Shown here: positions 1 to 61,681 of the stretch, piece after piece
How positions within the stretch are numbered: the first letter of the stretch is position 1
How the letters are laid out: every line of letters starts with the position of its first letter
Virus record (IMG/VR): IMGVR_UViG_3300027705_000005
Coordinates: 1 to 64,000 of that record
Strand: one strand, 5' to 3'
DNA from: a virus
Lineage: Duplodnaviria; Caudoviricetes
DNA length: 64,000 nucleotides
Made by a program: the position numbers and the translations under genes
Notes under the pieces: generated by a model
What the model was told of the DNA's origin: nothing
Seen by the model: only the letters and a program-made list of their open reading frames with translations
Databases searched by the model: none

Positions 1-76
1 ATTATTGGTAGTGGATTTGGTCCTATATACAATCATATAAAGAGTTTATATTAAAGTTTAAAAGGTTATTAAATTG

Positions 77-110
77 AAAAAGCCAGAGTTGTTTAAGCTC
101 TGGCTTTCTT
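77..110 (-). terminator. Intrinsic terminator downstream of the tRNA / leftward block
   Basis: AAAGCCAGAG (79-88) / CTCTGGCTTT (98-107) inverted repeat flanked by A/T runs. Confidence 0.6.
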
Positions 111-198
111 GTAAGATCAACTAACATGTGATCCTTACATACTCTTTAAAAAGACTCCCTCATTTGAGCATTGTTAAGAGGCTTAGGAAGTATATTAG

Positions 199-271
199 TA
201 GCGGGGAGTGGACTTGAACCACTGACCTCAAGGTTATGAGCCTTGCAAGCTACCAACTGCTCTACCCCGCT
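199..271 (-). tRNA. tRNA-Met(CAT), initiator-like scaffold, no encoded CCA
   Basis: Minus strand reads AGCGGGG-TA-GAGC-AGTTGGTA-GCTT-G-CAAGG-CTCATAA-CCTTG-AGGTC-AGTGG-TTCAAGT-CCACT-CCCCGCT-A; full cloverleaf, followed by CTA rather than CCA. Confidence 0.95.
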
Positions 272-279
272 ATATTTCT

Positions 280-474
280 TTAAAAGAAATCAGATATATT
301 TGGTGGTATATCTTCATCCTCTATTTCATTATTCTGTTCTTGTATCATGCTATAAGGCATTATCTCCCAGTTATTTAAGTTAGTATCATGTGATGATATA
401 AACATAATAACCTGATCTAAAGATGTAACATCATCTATTATAGCTATCTTCCTCTTTAAATCTAATCTTATCAT
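280..474 (-). CDS. Small acidic hypothetical protein, paralog of 471-674
   Basis: ORF overlapping its neighbour by ATGA; shared IIDD motif and acidic C-terminus. Confidence 0.65.
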   Translation of the reverse strand: MIRLDLKRKIAIIDDVTSLDQVIMFISSHDTNLNNWEIMPYSMIQEQNNEIEDEDIPPNISDFF

Positions 475-674
475 TCTAATTCTTCATAAAAGTTAGCTAC
501 AGAAGTAGTAGGTAACAAGTCATCTGTAATATCTATCTCTTCATCATCTTGTAATATTCCAGCAAATGTGAAATCTCCAAGTTTGTGATTAAAAGCAATC
601 ATATTAAAGTCAGTAACATTTAAGTCATCTATAATATGAATCATTTTACTTTCAAAATCAATCTGTAATCTCAT
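471..674 (-). CDS. Small acidic hypothetical protein
   Basis: ORF with A-rich leader; similar to 280-474. Confidence 0.65.
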   Translation of the reverse strand: MRLQIDFESKMIHIIDDLNVTDFNMIAFNHKLGDFTFAGILQDDEEIDITDDLLPTTSVANFYEELE

Positions 675-711
675 TAGTTTTTGTTTTAGTTATTTATTTG
701 TGTGGGAAGTA

Positions 712-756
712 TTATTTAGTACCTCCACAACCACATCCATTTGGTTTTTTCATCAT
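712..756 (-). CDS. Candidate 14-aa micropeptide MMKKPNGCGCGGTK
   Basis: ATG...TAA with A-rich leader that fills the gap between two same-strand genes; below the ORF-track size cut-off. Confidence 0.4.
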   Translation of the reverse strand: MMKKPNGCGCGGTK

Positions 757-764
757 TTTAGCTT

Positions 765-1349
765 TTAAGAGTTATTAAATTTAAGTTTTAAATCTTCCTT
801 TATTTTAGCAGAATTATCTTTCTTCCATAAAGGTCTCATATTAGAATGATGAAAGCATTTATAAAGTTCCTCTTCTTTAGTTAAATCAAAAGAACAAATT
901 GGTATTATATGATCTATATCCCATAAATTTCTATTCTCCCAATTCATACCATTTAAAAATAAAGATTCTATATAATCTCTAAAATAGTTATATGTACATC
1001 CCAAATATTCTACAGAACTTCCTTCTTTTTTGGTTTTAGCTTTTGTTAAAGCTTTCCATATTCTATTTCTGTGTCTCTTTTCAACCAGAAAAATAGAATC
1101 TTGTTGTGTTTTTAATCTTCTTAATTCATTTCTTCTTTTATTATAAGCAATTCCTCTTTTTTTAGCTGCTAATGCAACTTTTTCTTTATTACTATTAATA
1201 TATTTTTCTTTCTGTTCTTTTACGCAATCTTTACATCTACCATGATAATCATTTATTCTATTTTCAAACCAAAAACAAATAAGTTCTTTTTCTTTCAAAC
1301 ATTTGTTACATATCTTTTTATTATTAATTATTGGATGTCTAGTTGCCAT
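765..1349 (-). CDS. Free-standing HNH homing endonuclease with N-terminal Zn-binding motifs
   Basis: CNKC...CKDC and WDIDHIIP...HHSNMRPLW..DN HNH motif. Confidence 0.85.
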   Translation of the reverse strand: MATRHPIINNKKICNKCLKEKELICFWFENRINDYHGRCKDCVKEQKEKYINSNKEKVALAAKKRGIAYNKRRNELRRLKTQQDSIFLVEKRHRNRIWKALTKAKTKKEGSSVEYLGCTYNYFRDYIESLFLNGMNWENRNLWDIDHIIPICSFDLTKEEELYKCFHHSNMRPLWKKDNSAKIKEDLKLKFNNS

Positions 1350-1702
1350 TAGTTCAATATTCCATTAAAATTTACTGGTCTTTTCCCTTCATCATAATGT
1401 TTTTGATCTCTTTGTTGTATTACAGATATAGGACTAATACCAGGACCAAGTAAATTAACCTCATGAAATCCATTATCTTCAGTAATAATAGACTCATATA
1501 AGTTAACTGCACCTTTATGTTTATCAAAACCCTTCTTTTGTTCTATATTTCCAGTAGAAGGATTATAAGATCCCCAAGGAGCAGTAGAAGTTTTAGATAT
1601 TGGTTCTACAAAATAAGTAACTCCAGTCAGTTTAGATGTTACTGTAAATCTTCCTGTATCATCTGTATTAGATAGGAAGTCTTTTAAGATTTCTTTATTC
1701 AT
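1349..1702 (-). CDS. Hypothetical phage protein
   Basis: 117-aa ORF downstream of a promoter-like motif; TAATG-coupled to the HNH gene. Confidence 0.75.
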   Translation of the reverse strand: MNKEILKDFLSNTDDTGRFTVTSKLTGVTYFVEPISKTSTAPWGSYNPSTGNIEQKKGFDKHKGAVNLYESIITEDNGFHEVNLLGPGISPISVIQQRDQKHYDEGKRPVNFNGILN

Positions 1703-1745
1703 AATATTTATTTATTTTCTCATTATGCGATATGCAAAATAAGTA

Positions 1746-1784
1746 CAAATATAAGTAAAAATTAAGATAATAGTTGTATCTTTA
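1746..1784. promoter_or_regulatory. Divergent Bacteroidota sigma70-type -7 elements
   Basis: TATATTTG on the minus strand (1746-1753) and TATCTTTA on the plus strand (1777-1784); the host consensus is TAnnTTTG. Confidence 0.55.
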
Positions 1785-1799
1785 CAAAAAATAAATAAA

Positions 1800-2096
1800 A
1801 TGGAAGATAAAAACAAACCTGATGGTTGGATCTCAAAAGAAAGAGAGTTGAAATTAATGTATGGGGAAGATTTTGATTTAGATAAATATTGGAATCAATA
1901 TGAATTATTATATGCTGATAAGTTTGGAATTAAGATAACAGAAGTTCCAAAAGAATATTCTGGTCCTGGAGGACATGTTTTAGTTTATCATAAAGATACT
2001 AATATTACAATTCAACCAGGAGATCCAAGAATAGATGAATATCTGAAAGAAGGTAAGATTGGGTATGGAATAGTTATGAAATCTGAAGAAAAATAG
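1800..2096 (+). CDS. Hypothetical protein, monocistronic
   Basis: ORF between a promoter-like motif and a terminator. Confidence 0.75.
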   Translation: MEDKNKPDGWISKERELKLMYGEDFDLDKYWNQYELLYADKFGIKITEVPKEYSGPGGHVLVYHKDTNITIQPGDPRIDEYLKEGKIGYGIVMKSEEK

Positions 2097-2115
2097 ATCA
2101 AAAATATATAAAATT

Positions 2116-2142
2116 AAGAGGTTAGAAATAATCTCTTTTTTT
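2116..2142 (+). terminator. Intrinsic terminator
   Basis: AAGAGGTTA-GAAA-TAATCTCTT followed by a T run. Confidence 0.75.
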
Positions 2143-2531
2143 ATGCTATCTTAAAAAGTTGAAAGCTATACCCTATTATTATAGCTTTTTGTATAATTTA
2201 GGTTTAATTTAATGAGATATGGGAAGGTTTGTAAAGATGGGATAGGTATTATGAAGGTATGTATATTATTATAGCTTATATGCACCCAAAAGGGTATAAT
2301 AGAAGATTATTTATAAGTAATATACCATATAGGGTATGGAACAATGTTCAATATATTAGTATGTTCAGTGACAATGAACAGTAACAGATAGTGAACAAAA
2401 TTATTTTTTAAAATATTTTTTTAGAAATGGATTTAAAAAATGATATGTAATTGTGTGTTGGTAGCCCCCCACATCAATCCCCCCTAAGACTTAGGCACTT
2501 TTGCCTATCCACGTCTATAAAATTAAGAAAG

Positions 2532-2885
2532 ATGAAAATTAAAGGTAAAGTAAATCAGTACGTTAACAAAAATGGTAACATAGTATTTGTGTATTCTCTT
2601 GAATGTGATGCAAAAGAACTCAAACAGTACAAAGACGTTCAAGGTGTCAACTATAAAGAACATGAAGATACTAAACTACCTCTTTATTGGACTATGAGAC
2701 CTGTCAACGTTGGTGATACACTACATAAGACCACTAAAGGAAACTTTCAGGTCTATGCTGATCTTGAAGAACAGACAAAGAGATTCACATCTAAGGTTGA
2801 AGACCATAGTGCTAAGTTTGAAGCCATTAAACAGTGGGCAGGATTTAGCAAACATGAGATTGCAATGATGATGATGAAGGCTTAA
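2532..2885 (+). CDS. Early hypothetical protein (possible OB-like beta fold)
   Basis: ATG at 2532 with A-rich leader is more plausible than the TTG at 2451; followed by a terminator. Confidence 0.75.
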   Translation: MKIKGKVNQYVNKNGNIVFVYSLECDAKELKQYKDVQGVNYKEHEDTKLPLYWTMRPVNVGDTLHKTTKGNFQVYADLEEQTKRFTSKVEDHSAKFEAIKQWAGFSKHEIAMMMMKA

Positions 2886-2891
2886 AGTAAC

Positions 2892-2928
2892 AATGGTGCA
2901 TACTAATAGTAGTGTGCACCATTTTTTT
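2892..2928 (+). terminator. Intrinsic terminator
   Basis: AATGGTGCATACTA / TAGTGTGCACCATT followed by a T run. Confidence 0.85.
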
Positions 2929-3353
2929 AACAGAATGCCAAGATTGTTACATTTTTTAATATGAACAAAGGGGCAAATGTACTTCTTGATTCATCTTTGT
3001 TGCTATTTATACACTGATTATCAATGTTTTATTGGTAGTTATGTGATTTACACATCTGTCATACCCTCATTTCATCCCCTTTTTACAAAACTCATTATTA
3101 ATCTCTATCTATTATTATAGCTTATTTGTTATCTTCTAAACACCATTTCTAATTCCTAAGATTAGACTGTAGTATTTACAGAGTTGTGAAGGGAAGTGCA
3201 TTTTCTTTTAAGTATCTTAAGTATCAGGGGATTAAGATATTAGTTAATGTATTTTTTAATACTACTACCAAGTAGACTAACTAGACTTGAACAAGTCTTC
3301 CCCAAGATGAGGTTCAAGATTTATATAAGTAGGTCACTCGCTTATATAAATGA

Positions 3354-3554
3354 AATAAACAAGATGTGAATAACTTATGTGTTGATAAGAAACACTTTGA
3401 TATTGATAGTACAAGTAGAGCGTACAGCATGACAACTCAAAGTCATGTAAACATAAAGAAGTGTGAGAAGCTTTGATTAATGTTTATAATTATGTTGCAA
3501 CATAATGAATTTATCTACTTGTACTATTAGTAAATAATCTTTCTTTTGTTTATT
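3354..3554 (+). ncRNA. Candidate structured RNA (long stem closing three hairpins)
   Basis: 17-bp stem 3403-3419/3514-3530 encloses CATGAC/GTCATG, TAAACAT/ATGTTTA and ATTATGTT/AACATAAT hairpins; outer stem 3354-3364/3544-3554. Confidence 0.45.
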
Positions 3555-3642
3555 AATGTAACTTACTCTCTTGAGTGAACTGTCTAAAGTCAGTGTAAAT
3601 ACAGATAGATAAACTTATTCCTCACTATTAAATTTAAACACT

Positions 3643-3873
3643 ATGTATAACTGGCAAGATAAATGTTATCAATTTCTTATTGGTAAAGGATTTAACAGAA
3701 AACAAGCTCAACATCATTTATTTAACTTTGTTAGAGACAACATGAATGAAGATTTTCATTTTGATGTTGATACAAGAGTTACTGAATTAGAATTAATTAA
3801 AGTATTAGAAATACTTACTACATATTACAATGCTGAATTGTACATATATGAGTATGAAAACACATTTAATTAA
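3643..3873 (+). CDS. Early hypothetical protein
   Basis: ORF with A-rich leader. Confidence 0.65.
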   Translation: MYNWQDKCYQFLIGKGFNRKQAQHHLFNFVRDNMNEDFHFDVDTRVTELELIKVLEILTTYYNAELYIYEYENTFN

Positions 3874-3936
3874 GATAAAAGGTTGGTAAACCATAAGCTT
3901 CCAATTTTTATTCCTCATCTTTTAAATAACATTAAA

Positions 3937-4161
3937 ATGATAACTCATAACATTTTATCATACAATCCATTTACTGTAGAGTTTATCAATTACTCTACTG
4001 GTACAACAGCAATTGAACATTATGCTGTTGTTCTAACCAAAAAAGAAATTGAAGCAGAATATGATTATGTTAGTTTTCCACCTAATAAAGTGCAACAACT
4101 AATTGATATGCAAAGTGAATCTGAATTAAATGCTCTTGAATCTCAGTCTACTGAACAATAA
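3937..4161 (+). CDS. Early hypothetical protein
   Basis: ATG at 3937 preferred over the upstream TTG; followed by a terminator. Confidence 0.65.
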   Translation: MITHNILSYNPFTVEFINYSTGTTAIEHYAVVLTKKEIEAEYDYVSFPPNKVQQLIDMQSESELNALESQSTEQ

Positions 4162-4170
4162 AAACACACA

Positions 4171-4203
4171 AAAGAGTTGAATTAAACCTCAACTCTTTTT
4201 TTT
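4171..4203 (+). terminator. Intrinsic terminator
   Basis: AAAGAGTTGA / TCAACTCTTT followed by a T run. Confidence 0.8.
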
Positions 4204-4227
4204 ATTAATAACACTAAATTTAATCCC

Positions 4228-4383
4228 ATGGATCATATAGCTAAACTTGAATCACTTATAAATGAGCTTCATAAGCTTGAACAAATACATGATAGAGATT
4301 CATTAAGACATTTAATCTATCAATATCAAAGAGAGTTAGAAGAACTAACAAGAATTAAACATGATGAATATGAAGAAATATAA
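4228..4383 (+). CDS. 51-aa coiled-coil hypothetical protein (not in the ORF track)
   Basis: MDHIAKLESLINELHKLEQ... ending head-to-head with the GIY-YIG gene. Confidence 0.5.
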   Translation: MDHIAKLESLINELHKLEQIHDRDSLRHLIYQYQRELEELTRIKHDEYEEI

Positions 4384-4384
4384 A

Positions 4385-4822
4385 TTATTTCAACCATTTA
4401 ATATCAGGAGGAATGCCATTAATAGCTACTAAATCTTCAGCTTTTAAGTCTTTGGCTTTCTTCTGATATTTATTTAACTTCTTGTATTTAGATTGTTTCT
4501 TGGTTATTTTCCTTTCAGCAATCAATACAATGTTATATTTTGGTTTTAATGTATCCATCCAATATTGTTCCCTTTCAACTAACATTTTGAATGGTACATA
4601 CTCTATTACTTCAAATAATAGTTTAATGCCTGAATTAAAAGCATTTTGTAACTTATAATTACAATGTGTCTTTTTATTTAAGTCTTTTAAATGATACCAT
4701 TTTCTCAAACCTAGTGATACTGTTGAACCAATATAAATATCATTATTAACTTGGTTATAAATTTTGTATATACATGGATTATTCATAGTACCCAAACGTA
4801 AATAAATTGACACTAATTCCAT
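4385..4822 (-). CDS. Free-standing GIY-YIG endonuclease, antisense to the early operon
   Basis: CIYKIYN...IYIGST...R...H...EREQYWMD...YNI. Confidence 0.85.
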   Translation of the reverse strand: MELVSIYLRLGTMNNPCIYKIYNQVNNDIYIGSTVSLGLRKWYHLKDLNKKTHCNYKLQNAFNSGIKLLFEVIEYVPFKMLVEREQYWMDTLKPKYNIVLIAERKITKKQSKYKKLNKYQKKAKDLKAEDLVAINGIPPDIKWLK

Positions 4823-4890
4823 AAATTTAACTTCTTTTTACAAAGTACTTTGAATTACAAAGTAGATTTTATAACACTAAATAAATAATC

Positions 4891-5211
4891 ATGAAAAGAG
4901 CTGAACATAAAGATAGAATACTATTATATGATACAACTAAGGGAGGAATGCAAATATATTCAAACTCTCAATGGTTTACTAATGAGAAGAAAGTTCAAGT
5001 ATTGACATTACCTAATAAAATAGTAATTAAAAAGAACTATTCTAACATGTCAGGAGCAAAAGAATATAAATTAAATAGAAACACTACATTTCATCCTGGA
5101 ATACATGTTTATATTAGTTATAAATATCCAGTTGGAGAAATATATCTTGATATGGATGAAAGTAATGATGATCAATTAGTATTTTATATTGAAGATTTAA
5201 CCACTAAATAA
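4891..5211 (+). CDS. Hypothetical protein
   Basis: ORF in same-strand gene array. Confidence 0.7.
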   Translation: MKRAEHKDRILLYDTTKGGMQIYSNSQWFTNEKKVQVLTLPNKIVIKKNYSNMSGAKEYKLNRNTTFHPGIHVYISYKYPVGEIYLDMDESNDDQLVFYIEDLTTK

Positions 5212-5216
5212 ATAAC

Positions 5217-5444
5217 ATGAAACACATTAAAAAATATCAAGCTGGTTATTTTTTATTACTAACAGTAATATACTTAACCTATCAATCATTTATCTGCTTA
5301 AATCCAATGGAAATAGCAGCAATGATGTTTTTAAACTTGTTTATCTTATTCTTATCTATATCTTTCTTTAAACAAAGTTATAGAATAGGTAAAATACAAC
5401 AAGAATATGATCATGGTGATCTAACACAATATAAAGATTACTAA
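5217..5444 (+). CDS. Small two-TM membrane protein
   Basis: Two hydrophobic segments. Confidence 0.65.
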   Translation: MKHIKKYQAGYFLLLTVIYLTYQSFICLNPMEIAAMMFLNLFILFLSISFFKQSYRIGKIQQEYDHGDLTQYKDY

Positions 5445-5741
5445 AAAACAACCACTATTTATCATCATATGATCTCATAACTTATGTGTACATTAACAGC
5501 CTTCTTTAAGGTGAGAAGTTATCTGTGAATATGATAGATATTTAGTGGTTTATAATATAACAGTAGATTTTATAATATCCAAATATCATGCAATCTGGTT
5601 AGTCAGATGTATTATAATTTCTACTGTTTTTAAGATGTATACCTGAATAGAACAGACTTCTATGATGATTAGTGATGGTAATTGAAGTAAGGTAAAAAAC
5701 ATCCCTTACATTTTTTAAATAACAATATAAATAACAATATT

Positions 5742-6071
5742 ATGCAACACAAAATAGGAGATACAATATATGTTCATGGATCTATGAGTATATCTAATGG
5801 ATCATCTGATACAGTTGGTGGATTAGCTACAATTGAATCATTTAATGTATCTAAAACATTACCAGAAGGTCATATGAATAGTATATTTGTAAGATTTAAA
5901 GAATTACCTGGACATTCTTATAATTATTTATCATTACTTGATAAACAAGATGAATTAAAAGAAAGATATAATGAATCTTATGCTTATCCAGATCCTGATA
6001 TTGATACACCTTGGATAGAATCAGGTGATATAGTTAATGGTGAGAAATATACTGGACCACCAATTTGGTAA
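5742..6071 (+). CDS. Hypothetical protein
   Basis: ORF with A-rich leader. Confidence 0.75.
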   Translation: MQHKIGDTIYVHGSMSISNGSSDTVGGLATIESFNVSKTLPEGHMNSIFVRFKELPGHSYNYLSLLDKQDELKERYNESYAYPDPDIDTPWIESGDIVNGEKYTGPPIW

Positions 6072-6088
6072 CAATATAAATAAACAAA

Positions 6089-6307
6089 ATGGAAGATTTA
6101 ATCAAAATAGCAATATTAATTTGGATATTAGTATTTATAAAAGATGTTAGAAAAGATATTCAAGAAACTAATAGGATATTAGAATCTATTAGAATAACAC
6201 AAACTACAGTATATAAAGATTCAGTATCATCTCATAGAGATCTTATAAGATTAAATAAGCAAGAGATAGAAGATCTTGAATACATTAGAAATAAACAATA
6301 TAAATAA
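6089..6307 (+). CDS. Small membrane-anchored coiled-coil protein
   Basis: N-terminal hydrophobic helix. Confidence 0.6.
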   Translation: MEDLIKIAILIWILVFIKDVRKDIQETNRILESIRITQTTVYKDSVSSHRDLIRLNKQEIEDLEYIRNKQYK

Positions 6308-6707
6308 ACTATACAATAACACTACAATGTATAAAACTAAATATTATAAACTAAGAAAACATATCAATCCAGATATTAAAGTTGGAGATCAACTATATTT
6401 AATTGATGGTTCTGGATTACTTCCTGTTAAAGAATATAAAGATCCAATATTTATAGTTTCATCATATCCAGAATTATTTGGTACTGAAGAAATAATAAAA
6501 GACTTAAAGTTTACTGTTGTTCAAACAAATATTGAGGATATAATAACTCCATCAGTAGTTGGTACAGCATTATTATTAGATTGTTTAATTGAATATAATG
6601 GCTGTCAATTATATACATGTTCTTATTTTCTATCAGATAAAACTTCAGATGGAGATTATTTTATGGACATGTATGAAGATGATTCTAACTTTGTAGGAGA
6701 ATATTAA
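6276..6707 (+). CDS. Hypothetical protein (true start probably the second Met)
   Basis: ORF in array. Confidence 0.7.
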   Translation: MNTLEINNINKLYNNTTMYKTKYYKLRKHINPDIKVGDQLYLIDGSGLLPVKEYKDPIFIVSSYPELFGTEEIIKDLKFTVVQTNIEDIITPSVVGTALLLDCLIEYNGCQLYTCSYFLSDKTSDGDYFMDMYEDDSNFVGEY

Positions 6708-6976
6708 ATAAAACATAACTACTGCTTTTAATCTAAATAGTGATATAGTGGGTTGTAAATCAGTAGATACTAAGCTAAGTGATTGGAAGAAAATATATGA
6801 TGAAATTAAACCATCATCAGATAATCATCCAGGAGCATATGCTTGTTAAAGATATGGTAGCTACAGGTGACAAATTTAATAATAATAATCAAATTAATAA
6901 CCAGATAATTAAAGTTAAAGTTGGTTGAGGAACACCTGTAGCCTACTATTTTATTAAACACTAATTAAATAATACA

Positions 6977-7303
6977 ATGAAAAAACTATTACAACAATTA
7001 CTAAGAGATCTAAATAATGATATAGAAAAATATCCAAAATCAAGTGCCTTTTTATGTCACTTAATTCATAATCATGATGAATTATATAATTATTTTATAT
7101 CTCAAATGCCTACTGAAGAATTACATCCTGAATTTTATAATCATAATTTATTTACAGGAGAATTTAGTTGGTGGAATCCCAGTAGTATAATGAAAGCAAG
7201 AAATCTTAATATAGTAGCATATACTGATGAATGGTATGCTTTAATTAAAGAATGTAATCAAGAAAGAGTAAAATTTATAGAAAAATTAATATCTATAAAT
7301 TAA
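6977..7303 (+). CDS. Hypothetical protein
   Basis: ORF with A-rich leader. Confidence 0.7.
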   Translation: MKKLLQQLLRDLNNDIEKYPKSSAFLCHLIHNHDELYNYFISQMPTEELHPEFYNHNLFTGEFSWWNPSSIMKARNLNIVAYTDEWYALIKECNQERVKFIEKLISIN

Positions 7304-7388
7304 AGATACTGACAATATTTTTTAGCAACCTTGACTCAGGTATATGAGTTACTAAGTTGTATCATGAAGCGTGAGTGCTATGATCTTT

Positions 7389-7416
7389 GATAGGATACTT
7401 GAAAGCCTATCTTTTT
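7389..7416 (+). terminator. Possible intrinsic terminator
   Basis: GATAGG / CCTATC followed by TTTTT. Confidence 0.5.
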
Positions 7417-7442
7417 AATTAAATAACATAAATATAATAACA

Positions 7443-7796
7443 ATGAGTTTAGTATTAATTTTAACATTTATATGGATATTATGTATTATATTAATATCTG
7501 TTTCAGAAGAAGGTAGTACTTTATACTTCTTATCAATCGTATTTTCAATCATAGGAGTAGTATTTGTGCCAGCTATAATGGCTACTTATCCTATAAAGAC
7601 AATATCTTCAGATATTAAACCTGATTATATAGCAATAGGTAAAGGTATAGCTACTATAAAAATAGGTGATGATGAAACTATATTTACTGATTACAATACT
7701 ATAACAAATATAAAAGATACTTCTACATTTATTAAAACAGAAGGATTTAACATATTTGATTATTCTGTAAGTAGAAAGTATGAACTAAAGAAATAG
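7443..7796 (+). CDS. Membrane protein (two N-terminal TM helices)
   Basis: Hydrophobic N-terminal segments. Confidence 0.7.
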   Translation: MSLVLILTFIWILCIILISVSEEGSTLYFLSIVFSIIGVVFVPAIMATYPIKTISSDIKPDYIAIGKGIATIKIGDDETIFTDYNTITNIKDTSTFIKTEGFNIFDYSVSRKYELKK

Positions 7797-7809
7797 TGTT
7801 ATTTAATAT

Positions 7810-7844
7810 TAAGAGGGTATCAGGAATGGTACTCTCTTATTTTT
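7810..7844 (+). terminator. Intrinsic terminator
   Basis: TAAGAGGGTATC / GGTACTCTCTTA followed by a T run. Confidence 0.7.
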
Positions 7845-7885
7845 ATAATACATAAATTAAATAACATGAAAAAAGATAATTACAT

Positions 7886-8323
7886 ATGATGTGGATATCA
7901 ATATTATTACTTCTAATAATCTTTGGTTATGTATGGATACCAGAATGGACTAAAAAAACAGTATCTCAATATCCATGTATTAAACATACAAATAAAGGAT
8001 ATGTGATATATAATAAAAATGGTGAATATAAAACAACAGGTGGTAATTGGTGGAGTTATTCAGATATGGAACATTGTCATTATATTCAAACTTTAGATAA
8101 AGCAATTGAAATATTTCATAAGTTAGGATTGGCTGTAGTTGATGAAGTTCCTTTAGGTAGAGTATATGAATTAGAACATATTCAAAAGGAAAAAGAGATT
8201 AAAGCTAAGACTGCATTACTTGAAGAAATAATAGCTGTTGATAAAAAGAATGGAGAAAATACTGAAGTATTAGAATCAATATTATTAAGACAAAAAGAAG
8301 AATTATTAATACAAACAAAATAA
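7886..8323 (+). CDS. Membrane-anchored hypothetical protein
   Basis: N-terminal TM helix. Confidence 0.7.
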   Translation: MMWISILLLLIIFGYVWIPEWTKKTVSQYPCIKHTNKGYVIYNKNGEYKTTGGNWWSYSDMEHCHYIQTLDKAIEIFHKLGLAVVDEVPLGRVYELEHIQKEKEIKAKTALLEEIIAVDKKNGENTEVLESILLRQKEELLIQTK

Positions 8324-8324
8324 A

Positions 8325-8705
8325 ATGATATTTGGATCAATATTTAAATCAAATAAAGATATGAAAAAGACAAAAGTATTTGCACATGAAGGTAAAATAG
8401 GTATTATACCTGGTGATCTAAACATATCTATGGATATGGAAAATGATGAATTAATATCAATTGAAAACTTAGAAATAACTAAGGAAGCATTTGATATTAT
8501 TACTGAAAATATTTCAGCTGAAATATTAGTAATTAGTGGATACTTTGGTTTTCCTGGTATTAATTCAAAAGTTCTTTCTAAAGGGAAATCAATTAGTGAA
8601 TATAAAAGATCTGAACTTAAAGAACAGATTGTTGAAGACATTAAATTTGAAGAAGAAGAAGAAGATATTTATCAAGAAATGGTAAAAGAGATGACACAAG
8701 ATTAA
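8325..8705 (+). CDS. Acidic hypothetical protein
   Basis: ORF adjacent to the upstream stop. Confidence 0.7.
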   Translation: MIFGSIFKSNKDMKKTKVFAHEGKIGIIPGDLNISMDMENDELISIENLEITKEAFDIITENISAEILVISGYFGFPGINSKVLSKGKSISEYKRSELKEQIVEDIKFEEEEEDIYQEMVKEMTQD

Positions 8706-8826
8706 ACTTATTTACTTATTATACAAAAGGAGGTTGGTTGTGTGGGTGATAGTAAGTAATTCAAGTAACAATGAATAAATCTGGGAGATGTTATATTCTC
8801 CTGGATTTATATTAAAAACAAATAAA

Positions 8827-9699
8827 ATGAAACAATTTTTAACAATTTTATTATGTATTTTACTATTTACTATAAATAGTAAAGCACAATGTCACGATTA
8901 TAATTGCAATCTTAGTTTTTATCTTCCTATTTTAGCAGGAGATGTAAACACAATTAATAATATTCCTGGAAACAAATGTTTTATAAACAATACAAGTACT
9001 ACACAAGTAGTGTCTACTGCTATCAATTTTAATAATTGGACAAAAATGACATTTGCAGCTGAGAATACAGGTAGTATTATAGTTGAACAGACACTTAATA
9101 TTAATTCTGGACAAGAAGTATATCTAAAGGGAGAAATAGTCTTAAATCAGCTTAATATGAGTGCTGGAACAGATAGTTCTATTATTTATGTAGAAGATAA
9201 TGCTAATATAGAAGTTAATTCAATACATTTTGCTAATAATACACATAATTATGTATATTTAGGTGAAGGAGCATTATTTTATATTAATAGTGAATCATAT
9301 GAAGTTGGTGATATATTTCAATTGGGGTCTAATCCAACTAATATAATTACATTTGTACAATGTCAACAACCTATTATATTAGCTCCTGCATTTGAGAAGT
9401 TCTTTATTAATGATCTAATTATATATTGGGTAGTTAATGGAAATAGTGTTATTATACAAAAGAAAGAAGGAGATAATTGGATAGATTTATACCAAGAAGT
9501 AGGAGAATCTAAAGGTACATATGTACCTAAAGAAGAAGGATATTATAGAGGAATGTCTGAATATGGACCATCTGATATAGTATATTTCAAATCTAATATT
9601 GAAAATATATTGTATAATCTAAAAGGACAAAGAATACTTAATCCAGAAGCTAATATACCATATATTAGAAATGGTAAAAAATACATTATTATAAACTAA
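8827..9699 (+). CDS. Secreted beta-rich protein with Sec signal peptide and T9SS (Por) C-terminal sorting-like domain
   Basis: MKQFLTILLCILLFTINSKA-Q signal; C-terminus LYNLKGQRI...YIRNGKKYIIIN; start 8827 preferred because 8788 lies inside a hairpin. Confidence 0.7.
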   Translation: MKQFLTILLCILLFTINSKAQCHDYNCNLSFYLPILAGDVNTINNIPGNKCFINNTSTTQVVSTAINFNNWTKMTFAAENTGSIIVEQTLNINSGQEVYLKGEIVLNQLNMSAGTDSSIIYVEDNANIEVNSIHFANNTHNYVYLGEGALFYINSESYEVGDIFQLGSNPTNIITFVQCQQPIILAPAFEKFFINDLIIYWVVNGNSVIIQKKEGDNWIDLYQEVGESKGTYVPKEEGYYRGMSEYGPSDIVYFKSNIENILYNLKGQRILNPEANIPYIRNGKKYIIIN

Positions 9700-9718
9700 A
9701 TTAAACTTATTAAATCTT

Positions 9719-9907
9719 ATGAAAAATTTACAACAAAGAGTTACAATATTGGAATCTAAATTCCAAGGAAGGATTAATATTCCTGCACCAACAAAAATGT
9801 TTATATCTAATGCTAAACAAGCAATTAAAGATAATCAAATTGTATCTTTAATAGATTTTGAAGAGAATGTAAGTAGAAAGAAAAAAGAATTTCTACTTAG
9901 AAGATAA
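9719..9907 (+). CDS. Small hypothetical protein
   Basis: ORF followed by a terminator. Confidence 0.6.
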   Translation: MKNLQQRVTILESKFQGRINIPAPTKMFISNAKQAIKDNQIVSLIDFEENVSRKKKEFLLRR

Positions 9908-9918
9908 ATGTGTTATTT

Positions 9919-9957
9919 ACCTGGATAATGAAATAGTAGTAGTTATCCAGGGTTTTT
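9919..9957 (+). terminator. Intrinsic terminator
   Basis: CCTGGATAAT / GTTATCCAGG followed by a T run. Confidence 0.65.
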
Positions 9958-9974
9958 AATTAAAAAATAAATAC

Positions 9975-10730
9975 ATGAGAAGTGAAATAATACAGAGAAT
10001 ATTAGATAATATTACTCCAGAAGATTACATGAGAGTGGAAAGAGAAATGGATATTTGGTCACCTGAATATATCTATTCTGATTGGTATGATGTTGACTAT
10101 GATTGGACATTAGCAGATTTTGAACAAACTTGTGGCTATCATTTAGATGTGCAATATTGTTTACCATATAGAGAATCCATTCAGAAAGTTAATGAATATG
10201 CTAGGACTTGGGATACAAGAAGAAAATCAGATTATCATAAAGTAGATGGTTATTATCCATATAAAAGAATAGAAAGAATATTAGAAAATAATATAGGTAA
10301 ATCATTTGATGGAGCATTTTCATATTATTGTAGAAAATCACCTAAATATCAACAAAAACTATTTGAAGAAACTATTAATAGAAATTGGAGTAGAAGATGG
10401 GGAAAAGATTATATAGTTGATGAAAATGGTTTAATACAAGGTAATCCAGATAGACATAAGAAATGGTATAATTGGATTAATCCACCCTATAAAGTAAAAT
10501 CTTGGGATCATAAAGGTGAAAATCAATGGATTCATAATATTACTGGACAAATTGGATTTGAACCTTATAGTTGGGAAGATGCAATTGAATTTAGAAAGAA
10601 ACATAAGTTTAAATATATAAATACTCAAGGTAAAATATATGAATTTCAGTCTAAAGATTACAGATATTATAGATGTAAGAAAGAACAAGAACAGAAAAGA
10701 AAGAAATATAATAGACAACTTCCAGATTAA
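9975..10730 (+). CDS. Hypothetical protein, aromatic- and basic-rich
   Basis: 251-aa ORF. Confidence 0.75.
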   Translation: MRSEIIQRILDNITPEDYMRVEREMDIWSPEYIYSDWYDVDYDWTLADFEQTCGYHLDVQYCLPYRESIQKVNEYARTWDTRRKSDYHKVDGYYPYKRIERILENNIGKSFDGAFSYYCRKSPKYQQKLFEETINRNWSRRWGKDYIVDENGLIQGNPDRHKKWYNWINPPYKVKSWDHKGENQWIHNITGQIGFEPYSWEDAIEFRKKHKFKYINTQGKIYEFQSKDYRYYRCKKEQEQKRKKYNRQLPD

Positions 10731-10935
10731 CAAATTGTATTTAGTTATTTTCAACTGGAAGTATGTATTGATCAGCAACATTGCAATAACTTAAATTTTA
10801 AATATTATGCGTTAGGTAAATAAAAAATTAATACCATATTAGAGCTATGGTTGGATTATCCTATTGTTTGGGATTATTTTATGTGGACATCATTAACAAC
10901 TGTAAAAAGTTACAGTAATTAATAACTGAATATGA

Positions 10936-10943
10936 TATATTTG
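10936..10943 (+). promoter_or_regulatory. Bacteroidota -7 promoter element TATATTTG
   Basis: Exact TAnnTTTG match in a 400-bp spacer about 200 nt upstream of 11145. Confidence 0.4.
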
Positions 10944-11144
10944 AAATAGATTAATGATAAGAAATAAAAATAGTTTAGGTGTGCTACCTAATATAAATAA
11001 AAAACCTGTATATCAATGATGGGTTCAATAGGTTGTAAGTGAAAGCTCAAATTTTTAAATAACACAAAAGAAATGCACTTGTAGGTTGAGTGTTGAAACC
11101 TTCTTTACAAATTTTTATATTTAACATTTTAAATTTTTAAAATT

Positions 11145-11561
11145 ATGGCTAATCAAGCTAATGTTGTTGAGATCAATGAAGGTCAAACAAAAATTTTCAC
11201 AGTATCTGCTGCTAATTATATTGGTTCAAAAACTAAACCAGCAACAGCAGATAAGAACCAATTAATGCCAATAGTAATACCAACTATTGAAGGTGGACAA
11301 TTACCAGAAACAGCAAGAATATTGCCTGGTACTATTGCTCAAAGAGCTGGAATTGAAGCTGGTAAATCTTATCAATTATCAGTAACAAATGGTGGACCAA
11401 GACCATATGTTGACAAACAAACTGGTGAAGAAAAAGTTGGTACTCAGTGGAATTACTTAGTTCTACACACATTATCATTTAAAGATTTGCGTGATATTCA
11501 GAATGAGCAATCTTCTGTATCAGTCTCAGCTAAAGTTAAAGCAGAGAATCCATTTGCATAA
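11145..11561 (+). CDS. Hypothetical protein, possible OB-fold nucleic-acid-binding protein
   Basis: Beta-rich with a flexible tail ending ENPFA; has its own terminator. Confidence 0.7.
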   Translation: MANQANVVEINEGQTKIFTVSAANYIGSKTKPATADKNQLMPIVIPTIEGGQLPETARILPGTIAQRAGIEAGKSYQLSVTNGGPRPYVDKQTGEEKVGTQWNYLVLHTLSFKDLRDIQNEQSSVSVSAKVKAENPFA

Positions 11562-11583
11562 GGATTAAATCTTATTTTAGTTT

Positions 11584-11621
11584 AAGAAAGGGAGAGTAGT
11601 AATATTCTCCTTTTCTTTTTT
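11584..11621 (+). terminator. Intrinsic terminator
   Basis: AAGAAAGGGAGAGTA-GTAA-TATTCTCCTTTTCTT followed by a T run. Confidence 0.85.
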
Positions 11622-11649
11622 ATTTATTAAATAACACAAAAAATAAAAT

Positions 11650-12066
11650 ATGACAGATATATTAGATGAAATCAGAAAAGAAGTAAAAGGGAAAACACAA
11701 GTTTCTATTGAATATTTTCATAAAGCAATAGCTATGGTAAATCCTACTATATTAAGAAATTTAAAACCAGATATATTAAAAGTAGGAGATATATTAAGAG
11801 TAGATAATAGTGGATCAGTACAACATCCTGGAGTTATATTTAAAATAAAAGGAGATGATGTATATTGTCTTGTAGCATCAAATAGTGAAGTACATAGTAT
11901 AAAAAAAATAACTAATTCCAGATTTCTTAAAGGGTATTATACTTATACTATAATTAGATATAATAAAAATATGGTATTAGACAGGTGGGTTGGTACATTT
12001 GATAATATGAAAGAATTAAGAGTAGCATTAAAAGAAGTTAAACAATTTTACAATAAAATATTGTAA
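11650..12066 (+). CDS. Hypothetical protein (SH3-like beta-barrel possible)
   Basis: LKVGDILRV...HPGVIFK pattern. Confidence 0.7.
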   Translation: MTDILDEIRKEVKGKTQVSIEYFHKAIAMVNPTILRNLKPDILKVGDILRVDNSGSVQHPGVIFKIKGDDVYCLVASNSEVHSIKKITNSRFLKGYYTYTIIRYNKNMVLDRWVGTFDNMKELRVALKEVKQFYNKIL

Positions 12067-12073
12067 TGATATA

Positions 12074-12148
12074 AGATGTGAAGCTCAGGTTGGTAAGAGC
12101 ACCTGAAGATTAATCAGGAGGTTGGAGGTTCAATCCCTCTCACATCTA
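12074..12148 (+). tRNA. tRNA-like RNA with non-canonical anticodon loop (AGATTAA; nominal anticodon ATT)
   Basis: AGATGTG-AA-GCTC-AGGTTGGTAA-GAGC-A-CCTGA-AGATTAA-TCAGG-AGGTT-GGAGG-TTCAATC-CCTCT-CACATCT-A; all four stems pair, but positions 8, 32 and 33 are A, A and G. Confidence 0.85.
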
Positions 12149-12179
12149 CAAATTTTAAATAACATATAAAAAGTAAATA

Positions 12180-13430
12180 ATGAAAGATCCAAGAGATTTA
12201 TTAGCATTAGAAGTAGTAGAATTAAGTAATACACATAAGGCAATGTTATTAAATCATTCTACAGGAGTTGGTAAGACTCTTACATCTCTTAAAATATCAG
12301 AAACTACTGTAAATAATAAACATTTAATAGTACATGCTGAAACTACACATAAGGATAATATTTTAGCTGATATAATTAAATTTGGATATGATCCTGAAAA
12401 TTATGTATTTAAAACATATAGAGGATTAAAACAAGAAGCTGGAAATAGTTATGGATGTATAATTCTTGATGAAGCTCATAGGATAACATCACTTAATTCA
12501 ACATCTCTTAGAAAAATTATTTGTGAGAAATTTATAGCATTAAGTGCTGAAGTTCCATCTCCCAAATTACAACTATTACAGTTATTAGCTCCTAAATTAT
12601 ATACACATAAAGTAGATTTAAAATTAGCTATAGAACTTGGTATATTACCAACTCCTAAGATTAAATTACATTGGTTAGATTTAGATAATGAAATAAGAAA
12701 AGAAGTAGTATTATCTAATTTATCTAAAACTGGTAATAGTAAATATGTAAAATCTTTTGAAGAATATATGTTTTTTATGGATGGACCTGGAAAATGGGTA
12801 TTTACTATTAAAGCATATCTTACAGATAAAGAACATTATGATTACATTAATAATCTGTATGCTAATTATGATAATAAGATTAAAGAATTATATAATGAAA
12901 TAGTTAAGAAGAATCAAGAAATTAGATTAAATCCTTCTTTAAGATATGTATATGACATAAATGGTCTTTATGAAGAACAATCTAAAATTAGAAGAATAAA
13001 GAAATTACTTGGTGGTAGAAGAAAGAATTTTGTATGTGATACTAAAAATGATTATGTAAATACATTATTTCATAGTCTTAAAGGTAAAAAGATTGCATTT
13101 ACTAATTCTATAGCCTCTGCTACATCTTTATCTAAAAATCATATACATAGTAAAGTAAAGGATAAAAAGCTTGTTACAAGGAGGATAAGTGACTTTAAAG
13201 AAGGTATTATTAATGAGTTATCATGTTCCAACATGATGAAAGAATCACATAATATACCTGATTTAAAACATGTAATACTACAACAGATGGATATATCTAC
13301 TTTTATTGGATTTATTCAAGTAAGAGGGAGAGCATTAAGATCAGATAAAACAATACTGCATTTGATATTACAGAGTAATACAATTGACACAGAAATCATA
13401 AAACAGTTACAAGAAAATAAATTATTATGA
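12180..13430 (+). CDS. Superfamily 2 (DEAH) helicase
   Basis: STGVGKT Walker A, ILDEAH motif II, LSA motif III, QVRGRALR motif VI. Confidence 0.9.
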   Translation: MKDPRDLLALEVVELSNTHKAMLLNHSTGVGKTLTSLKISETTVNNKHLIVHAETTHKDNILADIIKFGYDPENYVFKTYRGLKQEAGNSYGCIILDEAHRITSLNSTSLRKIICEKFIALSAEVPSPKLQLLQLLAPKLYTHKVDLKLAIELGILPTPKIKLHWLDLDNEIRKEVVLSNLSKTGNSKYVKSFEEYMFFMDGPGKWVFTIKAYLTDKEHYDYINNLYANYDNKIKELYNEIVKKNQEIRLNPSLRYVYDINGLYEEQSKIRRIKKLLGGRRKNFVCDTKNDYVNTLFHSLKGKKIAFTNSIASATSLSKNHIHSKVKDKKLVTRRISDFKEGIINELSCSNMMKESHNIPDLKHVILQQMDISTFIGFIQVRGRALRSDKTILHLILQSNTIDTEIIKQLQENKLL

Positions 13431-14806
13431 TGGAATTTAAAATAGGAGATATAGTTTCTAAGAAATCTGGAAAACCATTTAAAAATGGAGAGAAGATTGA
13501 TGAAATAGAATATTTTACAACTAATGAATTACATCCTAAAAAATCAGATGCTGCATTCATGAAAAATAGTAAGACTATTGTAACATTAAATACTTTAAAA
13601 ATAAAAGAAAAAATGAGTAAATTTATAACACCAGTCTCCATGAAGGTGACAAGAGAAGAGTTTAATTATTTAGAAAAAGAATTAGAAAAATTAGGATATG
13701 AAAGTTCATTAATAGGGCTTATATATCCAGTGGATAATTATATTGCTACTAATTTAGGTAATACAAATAATTTGTTTTCCAACATAGATAATGAAACTAT
13801 TAATAGACATGACAGATATTACATAGATAGTTATAATCCTGAATTATTTCTTGCTTTAGCTGCTATGACAGATAATTATGATCCAATAGTTAGAGAATAT
13901 ATGATTTGTATTTATGATACAGTTAATTGTGAAATCAATAGTAAAGTAGGAGATATTATAAAAATTTTAAGTTTTAATGATAATTCAAAATGGAAACCTA
14001 AACAAACAGAAAAAGGTCATTTTGGTACTGATTGGTCAAGAAATCATTATAGAAAAGCTACTAAAGAAGAATTAATTTCTCATTTCTCTAAAGATACTTT
14101 TGTATTACCTGAAAGATGGGTAGTTAAAGCAGATGGTAAAGGACCTATTGGAAAATATTTTGATAAACAATGCAATACTTGTATATATGATTTTAGAGAT
14201 GGTTATTATCATAGATTTGGAAAAAATGGAGATGATATAACAAATCCTAATAAATTATCAAATTTACAATTTCATAGTTATTCAATAATAGATGATCATA
14301 CTGAAATTACACAAGAACAATTTGAAAAATATGTATTAAATTCAAATAATAAACAAACTAAAATAAAAATGAAACATACAATAACATTAGATCAATTAAG
14401 ATTAATCTTTAATGTAGCTTGTGCTAATTGGCAAGAAAAGATTAAAGTATATGCTGGTAGAGCAGTATTTCCACAAGTAACAGTTGATTTTACAAATGAT
14501 GAAGTAAAAACAATGTATAGTGCTTCTAATTCAGAACAAAAAGCAGTATTAGATAGTATATTTACTGAATATAATAAGGATAATAATCCATTTATAGAAC
14601 ATAAAGATAATGCAAAACTAATAGCTGAATTATCTAATACTTGTTTTGGAGGAAGTGATACAATTGAACTTTCACAATCTATTATTTCAATGAGAAAATT
14701 ACCTAGTAATTTAAGAAATAGATCTTTCTTTGTAAGAGGTTCATATCAAGTGATATTACATGAGAAAGAAGGAGCTGGAACAATAATTGAATTCCAGAAA
14801 AGATAA
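13427..14806 (+). CDS. Mosaic hypothetical protein (probable fusion of several small modules)
   Basis: In-frame internal ATGs at 13613 and 14369 preceded by leader-like A-rich runs. Confidence 0.7.
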   Translation: MMEFKIGDIVSKKSGKPFKNGEKIDEIEYFTTNELHPKKSDAAFMKNSKTIVTLNTLKIKEKMSKFITPVSMKVTREEFNYLEKELEKLGYESSLIGLIYPVDNYIATNLGNTNNLFSNIDNETINRHDRYYIDSYNPELFLALAAMTDNYDPIVREYMICIYDTVNCEINSKVGDIIKILSFNDNSKWKPKQTEKGHFGTDWSRNHYRKATKEELISHFSKDTFVLPERWVVKADGKGPIGKYFDKQCNTCIYDFRDGYYHRFGKNGDDITNPNKLSNLQFHSYSIIDDHTEITQEQFEKYVLNSNNKQTKIKMKHTITLDQLRLIFNVACANWQEKIKVYAGRAVFPQVTVDFTNDEVKTMYSASNSEQKAVLDSIFTEYNKDNNPFIEHKDNAKLIAELSNTCFGGSDTIELSQSIISMRKLPSNLRNRSFFVRGSYQVILHEKEGAGTIIEFQKR

Positions 14807-32605: not shown

Positions 32606-32992
32606 ATGAACAGATTATTAGTAATTTGTTTCTTGTGCTTATGCTCCTTTGTGGGTATAAGTCAGGAAACTAAGATATATCCAGAGAAAACTGTATATTA
32701 TAAAGAAAATTCCAAAGGTGAAATGGAATACATAAATACTGAATTGTATGTAAAAGAATTACTTATGTTTCAATACAATGATACATATGTTAGTTTAAAC
32801 TTTTATATAGGAGAGTATAGATATACTTACTTTTTTGATTATGAATATTCAGAAAATAAAGGAATAGATGAAGAAGTACAATATTGGAGAAGTAATGTAA
32901 ATGAATGTTTAATGATATTAGAAGATAGTACTATTACTATTTACAGTTTTAAGTATAAATTTTCAATTGTATATCATATTATTGATAATTAA
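32606..32992 (+). CDS. Exported protein with signal peptide
   Basis: MNRLLVICFLCLCSFVGIS-Q. Confidence 0.7.
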   Translation: MNRLLVICFLCLCSFVGISQETKIYPEKTVYYKENSKGEMEYINTELYVKELLMFQYNDTYVSLNFYIGEYRYTYFFDYEYSENKGIDEEVQYWRSNVNECLMILEDSTITIYSFKYKFSIVYHIIDN

Positions 32993-61004: not shown

Positions 61005-61681
61005 ACTTCTTTCCAGATTTTATTATTTTTGATTTTATAAATTGTCATTTTAGCTACTCCATATATAGAAGATAAATTAACTACAGTATCGTTTGATTTT
61101 CTTATAGTTTTAACTATCTCCCAGTTTAATTTAGCTGAAGGATTGTTTTCACCCAACACTTTATTAGAAAGATTCTTACTTCTTTTTAAAGCAGATTCTT
61201 TTAATTTTTGTTTATGCTCTTCTGAAAAAACAATTCCTTTTTTAGCTTTAGACATTTTTTCTTTAGTCTCTTTAGATTTAGGTTGCGGTTTTCCTAATTT
61301 CGATTTGCTTAATAATTGTCTTGTTTCTTCTGAAATAATTCTACCCATAAGAGCTTTAGAAATCTTTTTTCTTGTAGATTTTTTAGGGACTCTTCCTTTA
61401 CTACTATAAGCAAAAGGACTTAGATTTACTGTATTTTTTGTATTATCAATAAACCATTGTTCAAGTTTAATTAAATATTCTGAAGGACAAGTTGCTACAA
61501 TTTTATATAAAAAAACATCAACCCCATATTTATTATAAGCTCTTTGTAATCTTGAATTAGGATGTGCATTTCTTTTTAGACAATTAAAATGTTCTCTAAT
61601 TCTTTTCTTTAAATTAGATGAACTCCCTACATAATTTTTATTATTGTAGCTGATTATATACACTCCTGAATTTAGTTGCAT
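61001..61681 (-). CDS. Free-standing GIY-YIG homing endonuclease with NUMOD3 repeats and HTH
   Basis: SGVYII...NYVGSS; SEETR/SKETK/SEEHK repeats; GENNPSAKL. Confidence 0.9.
   Translation of the reverse strand: MQLNSGVYIISYNNKNYVGSSSNLKKRIREHFNCLKRNAHPNSRLQRAYNKYGVDVFLYKIVATCPSEYLIKLEQWFIDNTKNTVNLSPFAYSSKGRVPKKSTRKKISKALMGRIISEETRQLLSKSKLGKPQPKSKETKEKMSKAKKGIVFSEEHKQKLKESALKRSKNLSNKVLGENNPSAKLNWEIVKTIRKSNDTVVNLSSIYGVAKMTIYKIKNNKIWKEV

Follow-up and report, generated by a model that had tools for sequence, protein, structure and literature searches.

A single IMG/VR virus record of 100,535 bp (IMGVR_UViG_3300027705_000005) carries in its first 64 kb, referred to here as the window, a gene on the + strand (positions 8827–9699; 290 codons plus stop) for a protein, P0001, that is probably phage-encoded cargo of the host type IX secretion system (T9SS). 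P0001 consists of a Sec signal peptide, a predicted right-handed beta-helix, an immunoglobulin (Ig)/fibronectin type III (Fn3)-like domain, a short linker and a terminal tail of 28 residues. The tail is conserved throughout the protein's family and is identical, at the level of sequence profiles, to a class of tails that end secreted proteins of Bacteroidales. That this short-tail class is a working T9SS signal is taken from the literature, and we infer that P0001 is exported, cleaved and active outside the cell. The reading that we favour, and hold to be reasonably probable, is that the infected cell exports P0001 by Sec and then by T9SS to its own surface.

The elements of the tail can be named after those of short C-terminal domains (CTDs) in Prevotella intermedia, in which 80 predicted T9SS cargo proteins comprise 32 with long and 48 with short CTDs (Ye et al., 2025, Open Biol 15:240335, PMC11969387). 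The short CTDs are 43–55 residues long, are predicted to form a single three-strand sheet, and carry motifs B (Tyr, Gly and a basic residue), D (GxY and then Ile) and E (a basic residue with an extra one near the end) (PMC11969387). The tail of P0001 (residues 263–290, positions 9613–9696, + strand; YNLKGQRILNPEANIPYIRNGKKYIIIN), located by a DNA pattern, a hidden Markov model (HMM) of bacterial tails and hhalign, contains motif B (Y263-N-L-K-G267-Q-R269-I), P273, a remnant of motif D (N-I-P-Y-I) and motif E (NGKK plus YIIIN), in which K284-K285 is followed by hydrophobic YIII. Searched against PDB sequences, the family profile gave as its top match (E 0.15) the C-terminus of a rumen-metagenome arabinanase, 4kca, which ends IYDLSGRLVTTPLQKGIYIRNGKKYV with a spacing identical to that of the phage tail. 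The deposited sequence of this GH43 enzyme (4kca_A) retains the complete short CTD at residues 650–682. The DNA pattern Y-[DN]-x2-G-x5-P-x5-Y-[ILVFM]-x-N-G-K-K was written from P0001 and 4kca and occurs once in the window. The terminal motif named in the original prediction, which was made from the letters of the window alone, is indeed there (9613–9681), ending 5 residues before the stop, and the pattern is absent from all of 100 dinucleotide shuffles of the window.

In GTDB genomes (one genome per species) the pattern has at least 120 matches, and in 118 of the 120 matches listed the motif lies 3–7 residues before the stop. The tail-bearing bacterial proteins range from ~200 to 2,400 residues and nearly all of the complete ones start with a signal peptide; their consensus runs TGI, ~14 variable residues, YDLxGRRVxxPxKGIYIxNGKKxxxK, then stop. 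Among 80 titles of the matches listed, all but three are Bacteroidales and one is Alkalitalea, of a related order; the groups named are Prevotella, Prevotellaceae, Muribaculaceae, Alloprevotella, Paludibacteraceae, Barnesiella and Porphyromonadaceae. Sangeribacter is also among the short-tail genera, and there are up to 40 tails per genome beside classical CTDs. Three tail-bearing contigs stand in bins labelled Oscillospiraceae, Clostridiales and Christensenella, and a Bacteroidales-type tail in such Firmicutes bins suggests that these contigs were mis-binned. None of the 80 titles (0/80) names Flavobacteriales. The claim that Y(N/D)LxG(Q/R)...NGKK is the short T9SS signal of Bacteroidota thus holds in that the tail class is real, but it is a feature of Bacteroidales and not of Bacteroidota in general, and Flavobacterium, proposed earlier as the test host, is therefore the wrong one.

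Comparison of profiles ties the phage family to this class over its full length. Aligned with the bacterial short tails by hhalign, the family gave a probability of 97.2% (E 3.5e-11) over 33 columns running through the last residue. With an HMM made from 115 bacterial tails P0001 scores 31.3 bits, a figure that is partly circular because the pattern that collected the tails was written partly from P0001, against 0.9 bits for the best of 193 other phage open reading frames (ORFs) and 6.4 bits for the best of 1,100 shuffled proteins. Relatives of P0001 that stood outside the design of the pattern score 39.9, 37.6, 34.9, 28.9, 27.5, 21.3, 19.7 and 17.3 bits with the same HMM, and their matches end 2–6 residues (mostly 2) from the C-terminus. 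The standard models for long CTDs, TIGR04183 and PF18962, miss the bacterial class too: a single one of 60 C-terminal pieces touched TIGR04183, at E 0.055. Profiles of the bacterial short tails and of 20 TIGR04183-positive long CTDs nevertheless align at motif B (hhalign probability 81%, E 1.2e-5), in agreement with the view of Ye et al. that short CTDs are long ones minus spacers. Five tail-bearing genomes contain 9, 40, 1, 19 and 39 short tails beside 9, 17, 87, 23 and 21 classical CTD matches, respectively, so that both forms coexist outside P. intermedia. The strict DNA pattern occurs in 3 of 301 genomes, which is too narrow for phyletic profiling, and strong matches to the short-tail profile (E ≤1e-9) in just 2 of 71 sampled genomes of the order, which shows the NGKK flavour to be lineage-restricted. 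Only one other IMG/VR contig carries the strict tail pattern (IMGVR_UViG_3300029377_000184, positions 8385–11231, + strand); its protein of 948 residues ends in a short CTD nearly identical to that of a GTDB locus (L101), and the contig, a 'viral' one of 11.8 kb, may be a piece of a bacterial genome or the edge of a prophage.

Within the phage family the tail is maintained as strongly as the folded domains. In an alignment of 29 members, with conservation expressed as the mean top-residue frequency, the tail reaches 0.40 and the two folded domains 0.42 and 0.39, while the intervening linker is the least conserved stretch at 0.21. G267 is kept in 27 of the 29 members and Y279 in 26. Every position of motif B is typical of 117 bacterial tails, and in the column-by-column comparison so are P273, Y279-I280, NGKK and the hydrophobic end. 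The N-x-P-Y form of motif D is conserved among the closest relatives of P0001, and more distant members show the ordinary K-G-I-Y-I. The linker (residues 256–262, SNIENIL; positions 9592–9612, + strand) is a candidate site for tail removal, by analogy with Ye et al. (2025). AlphaFold2 builds the terminal 35 residues as short strands only, with a predicted local distance difference test score (pLDDT) of 82–94 for the tail.

At the other end of the protein, residues 1–20 (positions 8827–8886, + strand) read directly as a Sec signal peptide in which MK forms the n-region, 13 hydrophobic residues form the core and S-K-A precedes Q21, giving a predicted signal peptidase I cut S-K-A/Q-C. M1, K2, Q21 and C22 are conserved in the family (Q21 in at least 90% of the 29 members, C22 in all). 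Gln at +1 after the signal-peptide cut is the published Bacteroidetes 'Q-rule' (PMC5837995). The original prediction was right about a Sec signal peptide ending KA-Q, and its statement that an N-terminal Gln is typical of Bacteroidota secreted proteins agrees with this published rule. It also placed the start of the gene correctly: the ORF list gives an open frame of 8788–9699 (+ strand) with an ATG at 8788, but every homologue begins at the corresponding MK, and the true start is therefore set at 8827. An imperfect hairpin, AAATCTGGGAGA ... TCTCCTGGATTT, lies between the upstream gene and this start (8775–8810) and covers the alternative ATG, a further reason to choose 8827. Elsewhere in the window, a second small ORF (128 residues, 32606–32992, + strand) has a signal-peptide-like N-terminus with GIS/QE in accordance with the Q-rule, and lacks a T9SS-type tail.

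Between signal peptide and linker, P0001 has a body of two domains, and AlphaFold2 models the whole protein from the 29-sequence alignment with a pLDDT of 90.2. Residues 21–182 (positions 8887–9372, + strand) are Asn-rich (15.4% Asn, compared with 7.8% in all phage ORFs of at least 100 residues) and contain conserved Cys at 22, 27, 51 and 179, which probably form two disulfides. Modelled alone, this domain is an all-beta solenoid (pLDDT 95.4, predicted template modelling score 0.90), a confident right-handed beta-helix that bears out the Asn-rich beta-solenoid body proposed earlier. Its best structural match is the tapirin adhesin domain 4wa0 (Z 8.1 over 119 residues, root mean square deviation (rmsd) 3.4), followed at Z 5–6.7 by autotransporter passengers, pectate lyases, putative Bacteroides/Parabacteroides adhesins and phage tailspikes; such matches to the predicted model show a fold and say nothing on function. 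Foldseek found nothing in the PDB at E ≤0.001, and BFVD yielded one unnamed viral protein (E 9e-6) and no match open to interpretation. Residues 183–255 (positions 9373–9591, + strand) are modelled as an Ig/Fn3-like beta-sandwich (pLDDT >90 and Z 7–8.7 to many Ig folds over residues 186–255), and the 'PI.L...F....I.W' segment that had been noticed from the letters corresponds to its first strands. VIA matches over residues 184–257 are headed by the CTD of RgpB (5ag9_B; Z 8.7, rmsd 1.9, 62 residues), but this match carries no weight because unrelated Ig domains score within one Z unit of it (Z 7–8.2). We considered the Ig-like domain as a hidden long CTD and rejected this, since motif B of the tail is all that aligns when the family is set against long CTDs in hhalign.

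P0001 thus has a tail at its extreme C-terminus together with a signal peptide, motifs B and E, and profile similarity to the Bacteroidales tails. Several points weigh against its being a short CTD exported by T9SS. Type A CTDs are recognised by TIGR04183 and PF18962 (cut-offs 23 and 27 bits) and by a seven-strand beta-sandwich as the last 70–90 residues; these models have no match at E 1–10 in P0001, in the six-frame genome, in 6 close relatives or in a set of 43 relatives, so that the TIGR04183/Por_Secre_tail search put forward with the original prediction failed. Pfam and NCBIfam scans of P0001 matched no family, type B (TIGR04131-type) sorting-domain models included. Compared directly with long CTDs, the family aligns weakly (hhalign probability 5%). 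In motif D, Y279-I280 is present, but positions 274–278 (E-A-N-I-P) lack the Gly found there in 114 of 117 bacterial tails, and Pro occupies position 278, at which I, L or V is present in 97% of the bacterial tails. N276 stands where about half of the bacterial tails carry Gly, and this Asn is probably a tolerated turn substitution. The cleavage motif of short CTDs, PT/GI with Ile at +2, lies 6–11 residues before motif B and is 'preferred' rather than obligatory (PMC11969387); the phage tail has no such motif of the TGI type, and its linker offers only S/N-I. Linker and tail together amount to ~35 residues, compared with the published 43–55, and the linker to just 7. To these are added the partial circularity of the HMM score of P0001 itself and the equation of the tail class with the published short CTDs, which was made motif by motif through that paper's verbal description of its logos. 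Full-length SprA is present in all 8 tail-bearing genomes tested, but also in 40 of 41 sampled genomes of the same order, so that its co-occurrence has no discriminating power. Finally, that the host of the phage has a T9SS is presumed.

If the reading of P0001 as T9SS cargo is correct, the protein would be exported by Sec and cut by signal peptidase I after S-K-A, exposing an N-terminal Gln, which most secreted proteins of Bacteroidetes also have. The body of beta-helix and Ig-like domain would fold in the periplasm, probably with two disulfides. The 28-residue tail would serve as a minimal three-strand short CTD in which motifs B, D and E of the seven-strand domain are retained; modelling places short and long CTDs at the same site on PorV (PMC11969387), and the PorV/SprA(Sov) route would recognise the tail and carry P0001 across the outer membrane. 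The tail would then probably be removed within the variable linker, and the beta-helix–Ig body either fixed to surface lipopolysaccharide or released. Mass spectrometry of P. intermedia has identified the cleavage sites of five short CTDs, and a C-terminal glycan on six cargo proteins with CTDs of both kinds (PMC11969387). As to what P0001 does outside, we can only guess at a surface binding module for adhesion, receptor masking or superinfection exclusion.

The same features could be read in other ways. P0001 may be exported by Sec only and go no further than the periplasm or the inner side of the outer membrane, its tail being a hairpin with a structural role or a motif for interactions that have nothing to do with T9SS; the lack of a T9SS HMM match and the missing motif-D Gly and cleavage motif speak for this, and a tail pLDDT of 82–94 could mean that the tail packs on the body. 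We regard this as unlikely: the tail, set off from the body by an unconserved linker, forms the very end of the protein, and along its whole length it matches a class found on hundreds of secreted Bacteroidales proteins that are otherwise unrelated. This is how a sorting signal behaves, and not a structural element. A different departure from ordinary cargo is a decoy, in which the variant tail would dock on PorV or the SprA translocon and be processed poorly or released slowly, braking host secretion or renewal of the surface, which could be a hindrance to phages whose receptors are surface proteins delivered by T9SS. The tail does deviate where the published motifs are most conserved, lacks the cleavage motif, follows a very short linker, and keeps its N-x-P-Y variant among the closest relatives. 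However, a plug would have no need of a folded, conserved passenger of 235 residues, and distant family members have the ordinary G-x-Y form, which makes ordinary cargo the simpler reading and the decoy an improbable one. Equally doubtful is a variant of this idea in which the altered short CTD acts as a T9SS brake or as a surface module permanently bound to the shuttle, blocking later phages that need receptors delivered by T9SS.

Two further candidates concern the N-terminus, and both were rejected. P0001 could be a part of the virion (a tail fibre or spike module) whose hydrophobic N-terminus is not a cleaved signal, given that beta-helix and Ig-like domains are usual in tailspikes and that the sole PHROGs match of P0001 is to a tail family (phrog_9983, E 0.036). 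That match is not significant, the textbook signal peptide with its Q-rule cut is found family-wide, and the gene precedes those for helicase and replication, whereas the giant ORF described below and the large genes next to it are on the other arm. With no significant tail-family match and no position in a structural module, a virion fibre is very hard to credit. Least credible of all is that P0001 is a lipoprotein with a lipid anchor, processed before Cys22 by signal peptidase II; the invariance of this Cys directly after the hydrophobic core would speak for it. The lipobox L-[AST]-[GAS]-C is absent: C22 is preceded by S-K-A-Q, and nearly all members have Gln at −1 instead of the Gly, Ala or Ser of a lipobox; four conserved Cys suit two disulfides better than one lipidated Cys plus three others, and a signal peptidase I cut with Gln at +1 follows the Bacteroidetes rule (PMC5837995).

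P0001 belongs to a family known from metagenomes throughout. Among 1.84 billion cluster representatives, 49 proteins match it at E ≤0.001, nearly all of 280–300 residues and matched over most or all of their length; two longer 'homologues' (P0034 and P0038) were discarded as repeat-protein artefacts (MBG and ankyrin). No relative was found by megablast (5 kb) and tblastn (P0001) against 50,697 phage records, by four IMG/VR scans with the family alignment, the homologue P0054, P0055 and the neighbouring gene as queries, or by a scan of JGI metagenomes with P0055. A later scan of the JGI metagenomes found one contig, which encodes P0054 (28% identity), has 26–29% G+C and carries all its larger ORFs (at least 90 residues) on one strand. 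This contig is like the record that holds P0001 and is probably of phage origin, and the gene downstream of P0054 is homologous to window ORF 13427–14806. Recurrence near the same neighbour on a similar contig indicates a conserved accessory gene, and this is likely what the P0001 gene is. In the ESM Atlas the clusters that come nearest consist of Bacteroidota proteins; in two of these clusters 57–72% of members carry PF18962, at scores of only 0.77–0.79.

The record has ~27% G+C and a CheckV completeness of 47%. The P0001 gene is one of the small genes with which a long rightward arm begins, ahead of the genes for helicase and replication. Just upstream, three small ORFs contain hydrophobic, membrane-type segments (6089–6307, 72 residues; 7443–7796, 117 residues with two hydrophobic segments; 7886–8323, 145 residues with an N-terminal anchor), and together with the P0001 gene they would, judged from their sequences, fit an envelope-directed gene group. 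ARAGORN reports a tRNA-Asn immediately ahead of the helicase gene (12074–12149, + strand), whose anticodon, ATT, is unusual, and a tRNA-Met near the left end (198–271, − strand). On the opposite arm is a giant open frame of more than 4,700 codons (3–14168 of locus L122, − strand, continuing into window positions 61672–64000), whose N-terminal 743 residues include a Dda-like helicase region with 29% identity to crAss002. Searches by tblastn with this helicase-like region and with polB gave only distant matches (27–29% identity) to many phage groups, and 20 proteins from the neighbourhood and the structural arm received hardly any PHROG annotation. The phage is probably crAss-like, a label unconfirmed beyond the giant ORF and the weak crAss002 helicase match, and its host is likely a T9SS-bearing Bacteroidales bacterium and not Flavobacterium.

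If the T9SS reading holds, gut or rumen Bacteroidales phages place their own proteins on the surface of the infected cell through the host T9SS. Such genes would then be under-counted in viromes, since a tag of ~30 residues is missed by current annotation models. The tag could be a clue to host range, pointing to T9SS-bearing Bacteroidales (Prevotella, Muribaculaceae) rather than Bacteroides proper, and could serve as a very small natural export tag for probing what T9SS recognition needs. As a by-product, short CTDs, published for P. intermedia only, are found in many Bacteroidales genera, with dozens in some genomes, a side result of practical use for annotation.

P0001 can be compared with known proteins at the level of its domains, its tail and its setting in a phage. 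Its body resembles the C-terminal domain of Caldicellulosiruptor tapirin (4wa0) and the small Bacteroides/Parabacteroides putative adhesins 4ygu and 3ljy in being a compact right-handed beta-helix of ~120–160 residues (Z 8.1, 6.4 and 5.2, respectively); the likeness is one of fold, at 8–15% identity, and no binding or catalytic residues can be transferred. With RgpB of Porphyromonas gingivalis it shares the order of functional domain, Ig-like domain and C-terminal sorting signal, and the closest superposition of its Ig-like domain is with the RgpB CTD. Unrelated Ig folds match about equally well, and in P0001 the matched domain is not the terminal element; P0001 also has no protease domain and no sequence similarity to RgpB. 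The Llp and Cor proteins of T5 and other Enterobacteria phages are lipoproteins that block FhuA and so alter the surface of the infected cell. The surface-changing role guessed for P0001 is the same, whereas there is no relation in sequence, fold or secretion route.

The closest likeness in architecture is to the short-CTD cargo of P. intermedia, in which beta-helix and Fn3 bodies are common (PMC11969387). Like these proteins, P0001 has an N-terminal signal peptide, a beta-helix and Fn3/Ig-like body, and an extreme C-terminal tail behind a coil linker, with motif B, the Y-I of motif D, a paired basic motif E and a handful of short strands instead of the seven-strand sandwich. It differs in being phage-encoded and known from sequence alone, in its ~35 residues of linker and tail, in lacking the motif-D Gly and PT/GI, and in its Pro at the I/L/V site. 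The principle of phage-encoded T9SS cargo is already known: a type A cargo protein was reported in 'Cryophage' (Bellas et al., 2020, PMC7468147) and ORFs with T9SS sorting domains in crAss-like cluster 2 (de Jonge et al., 2019, PMC6949934), and BFVD includes an uncultured-phage protein named for a T9SS sorting domain. The original prediction knew of no characterised example in a lytic phage; it is true that none of the reported cases has been characterised, but such cargo had been published, with superinfection or surface change as the proposed role (PMC7468147, PMC6949934). All are Bacteroidota phage genes that bear host export labels. The Cryophage and crAss-like cluster 2 proteins have long CTDs that the type A model sees, whereas P0001 has the short Bacteroidales form that escapes the models, and its passenger belongs to an unannotated family of ~50 clusters. 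What is new is therefore modest: to our knowledge, P0001 is the first phage example with a short, HMM-invisible Bacteroidales tag, here on a previously undescribed passenger family.

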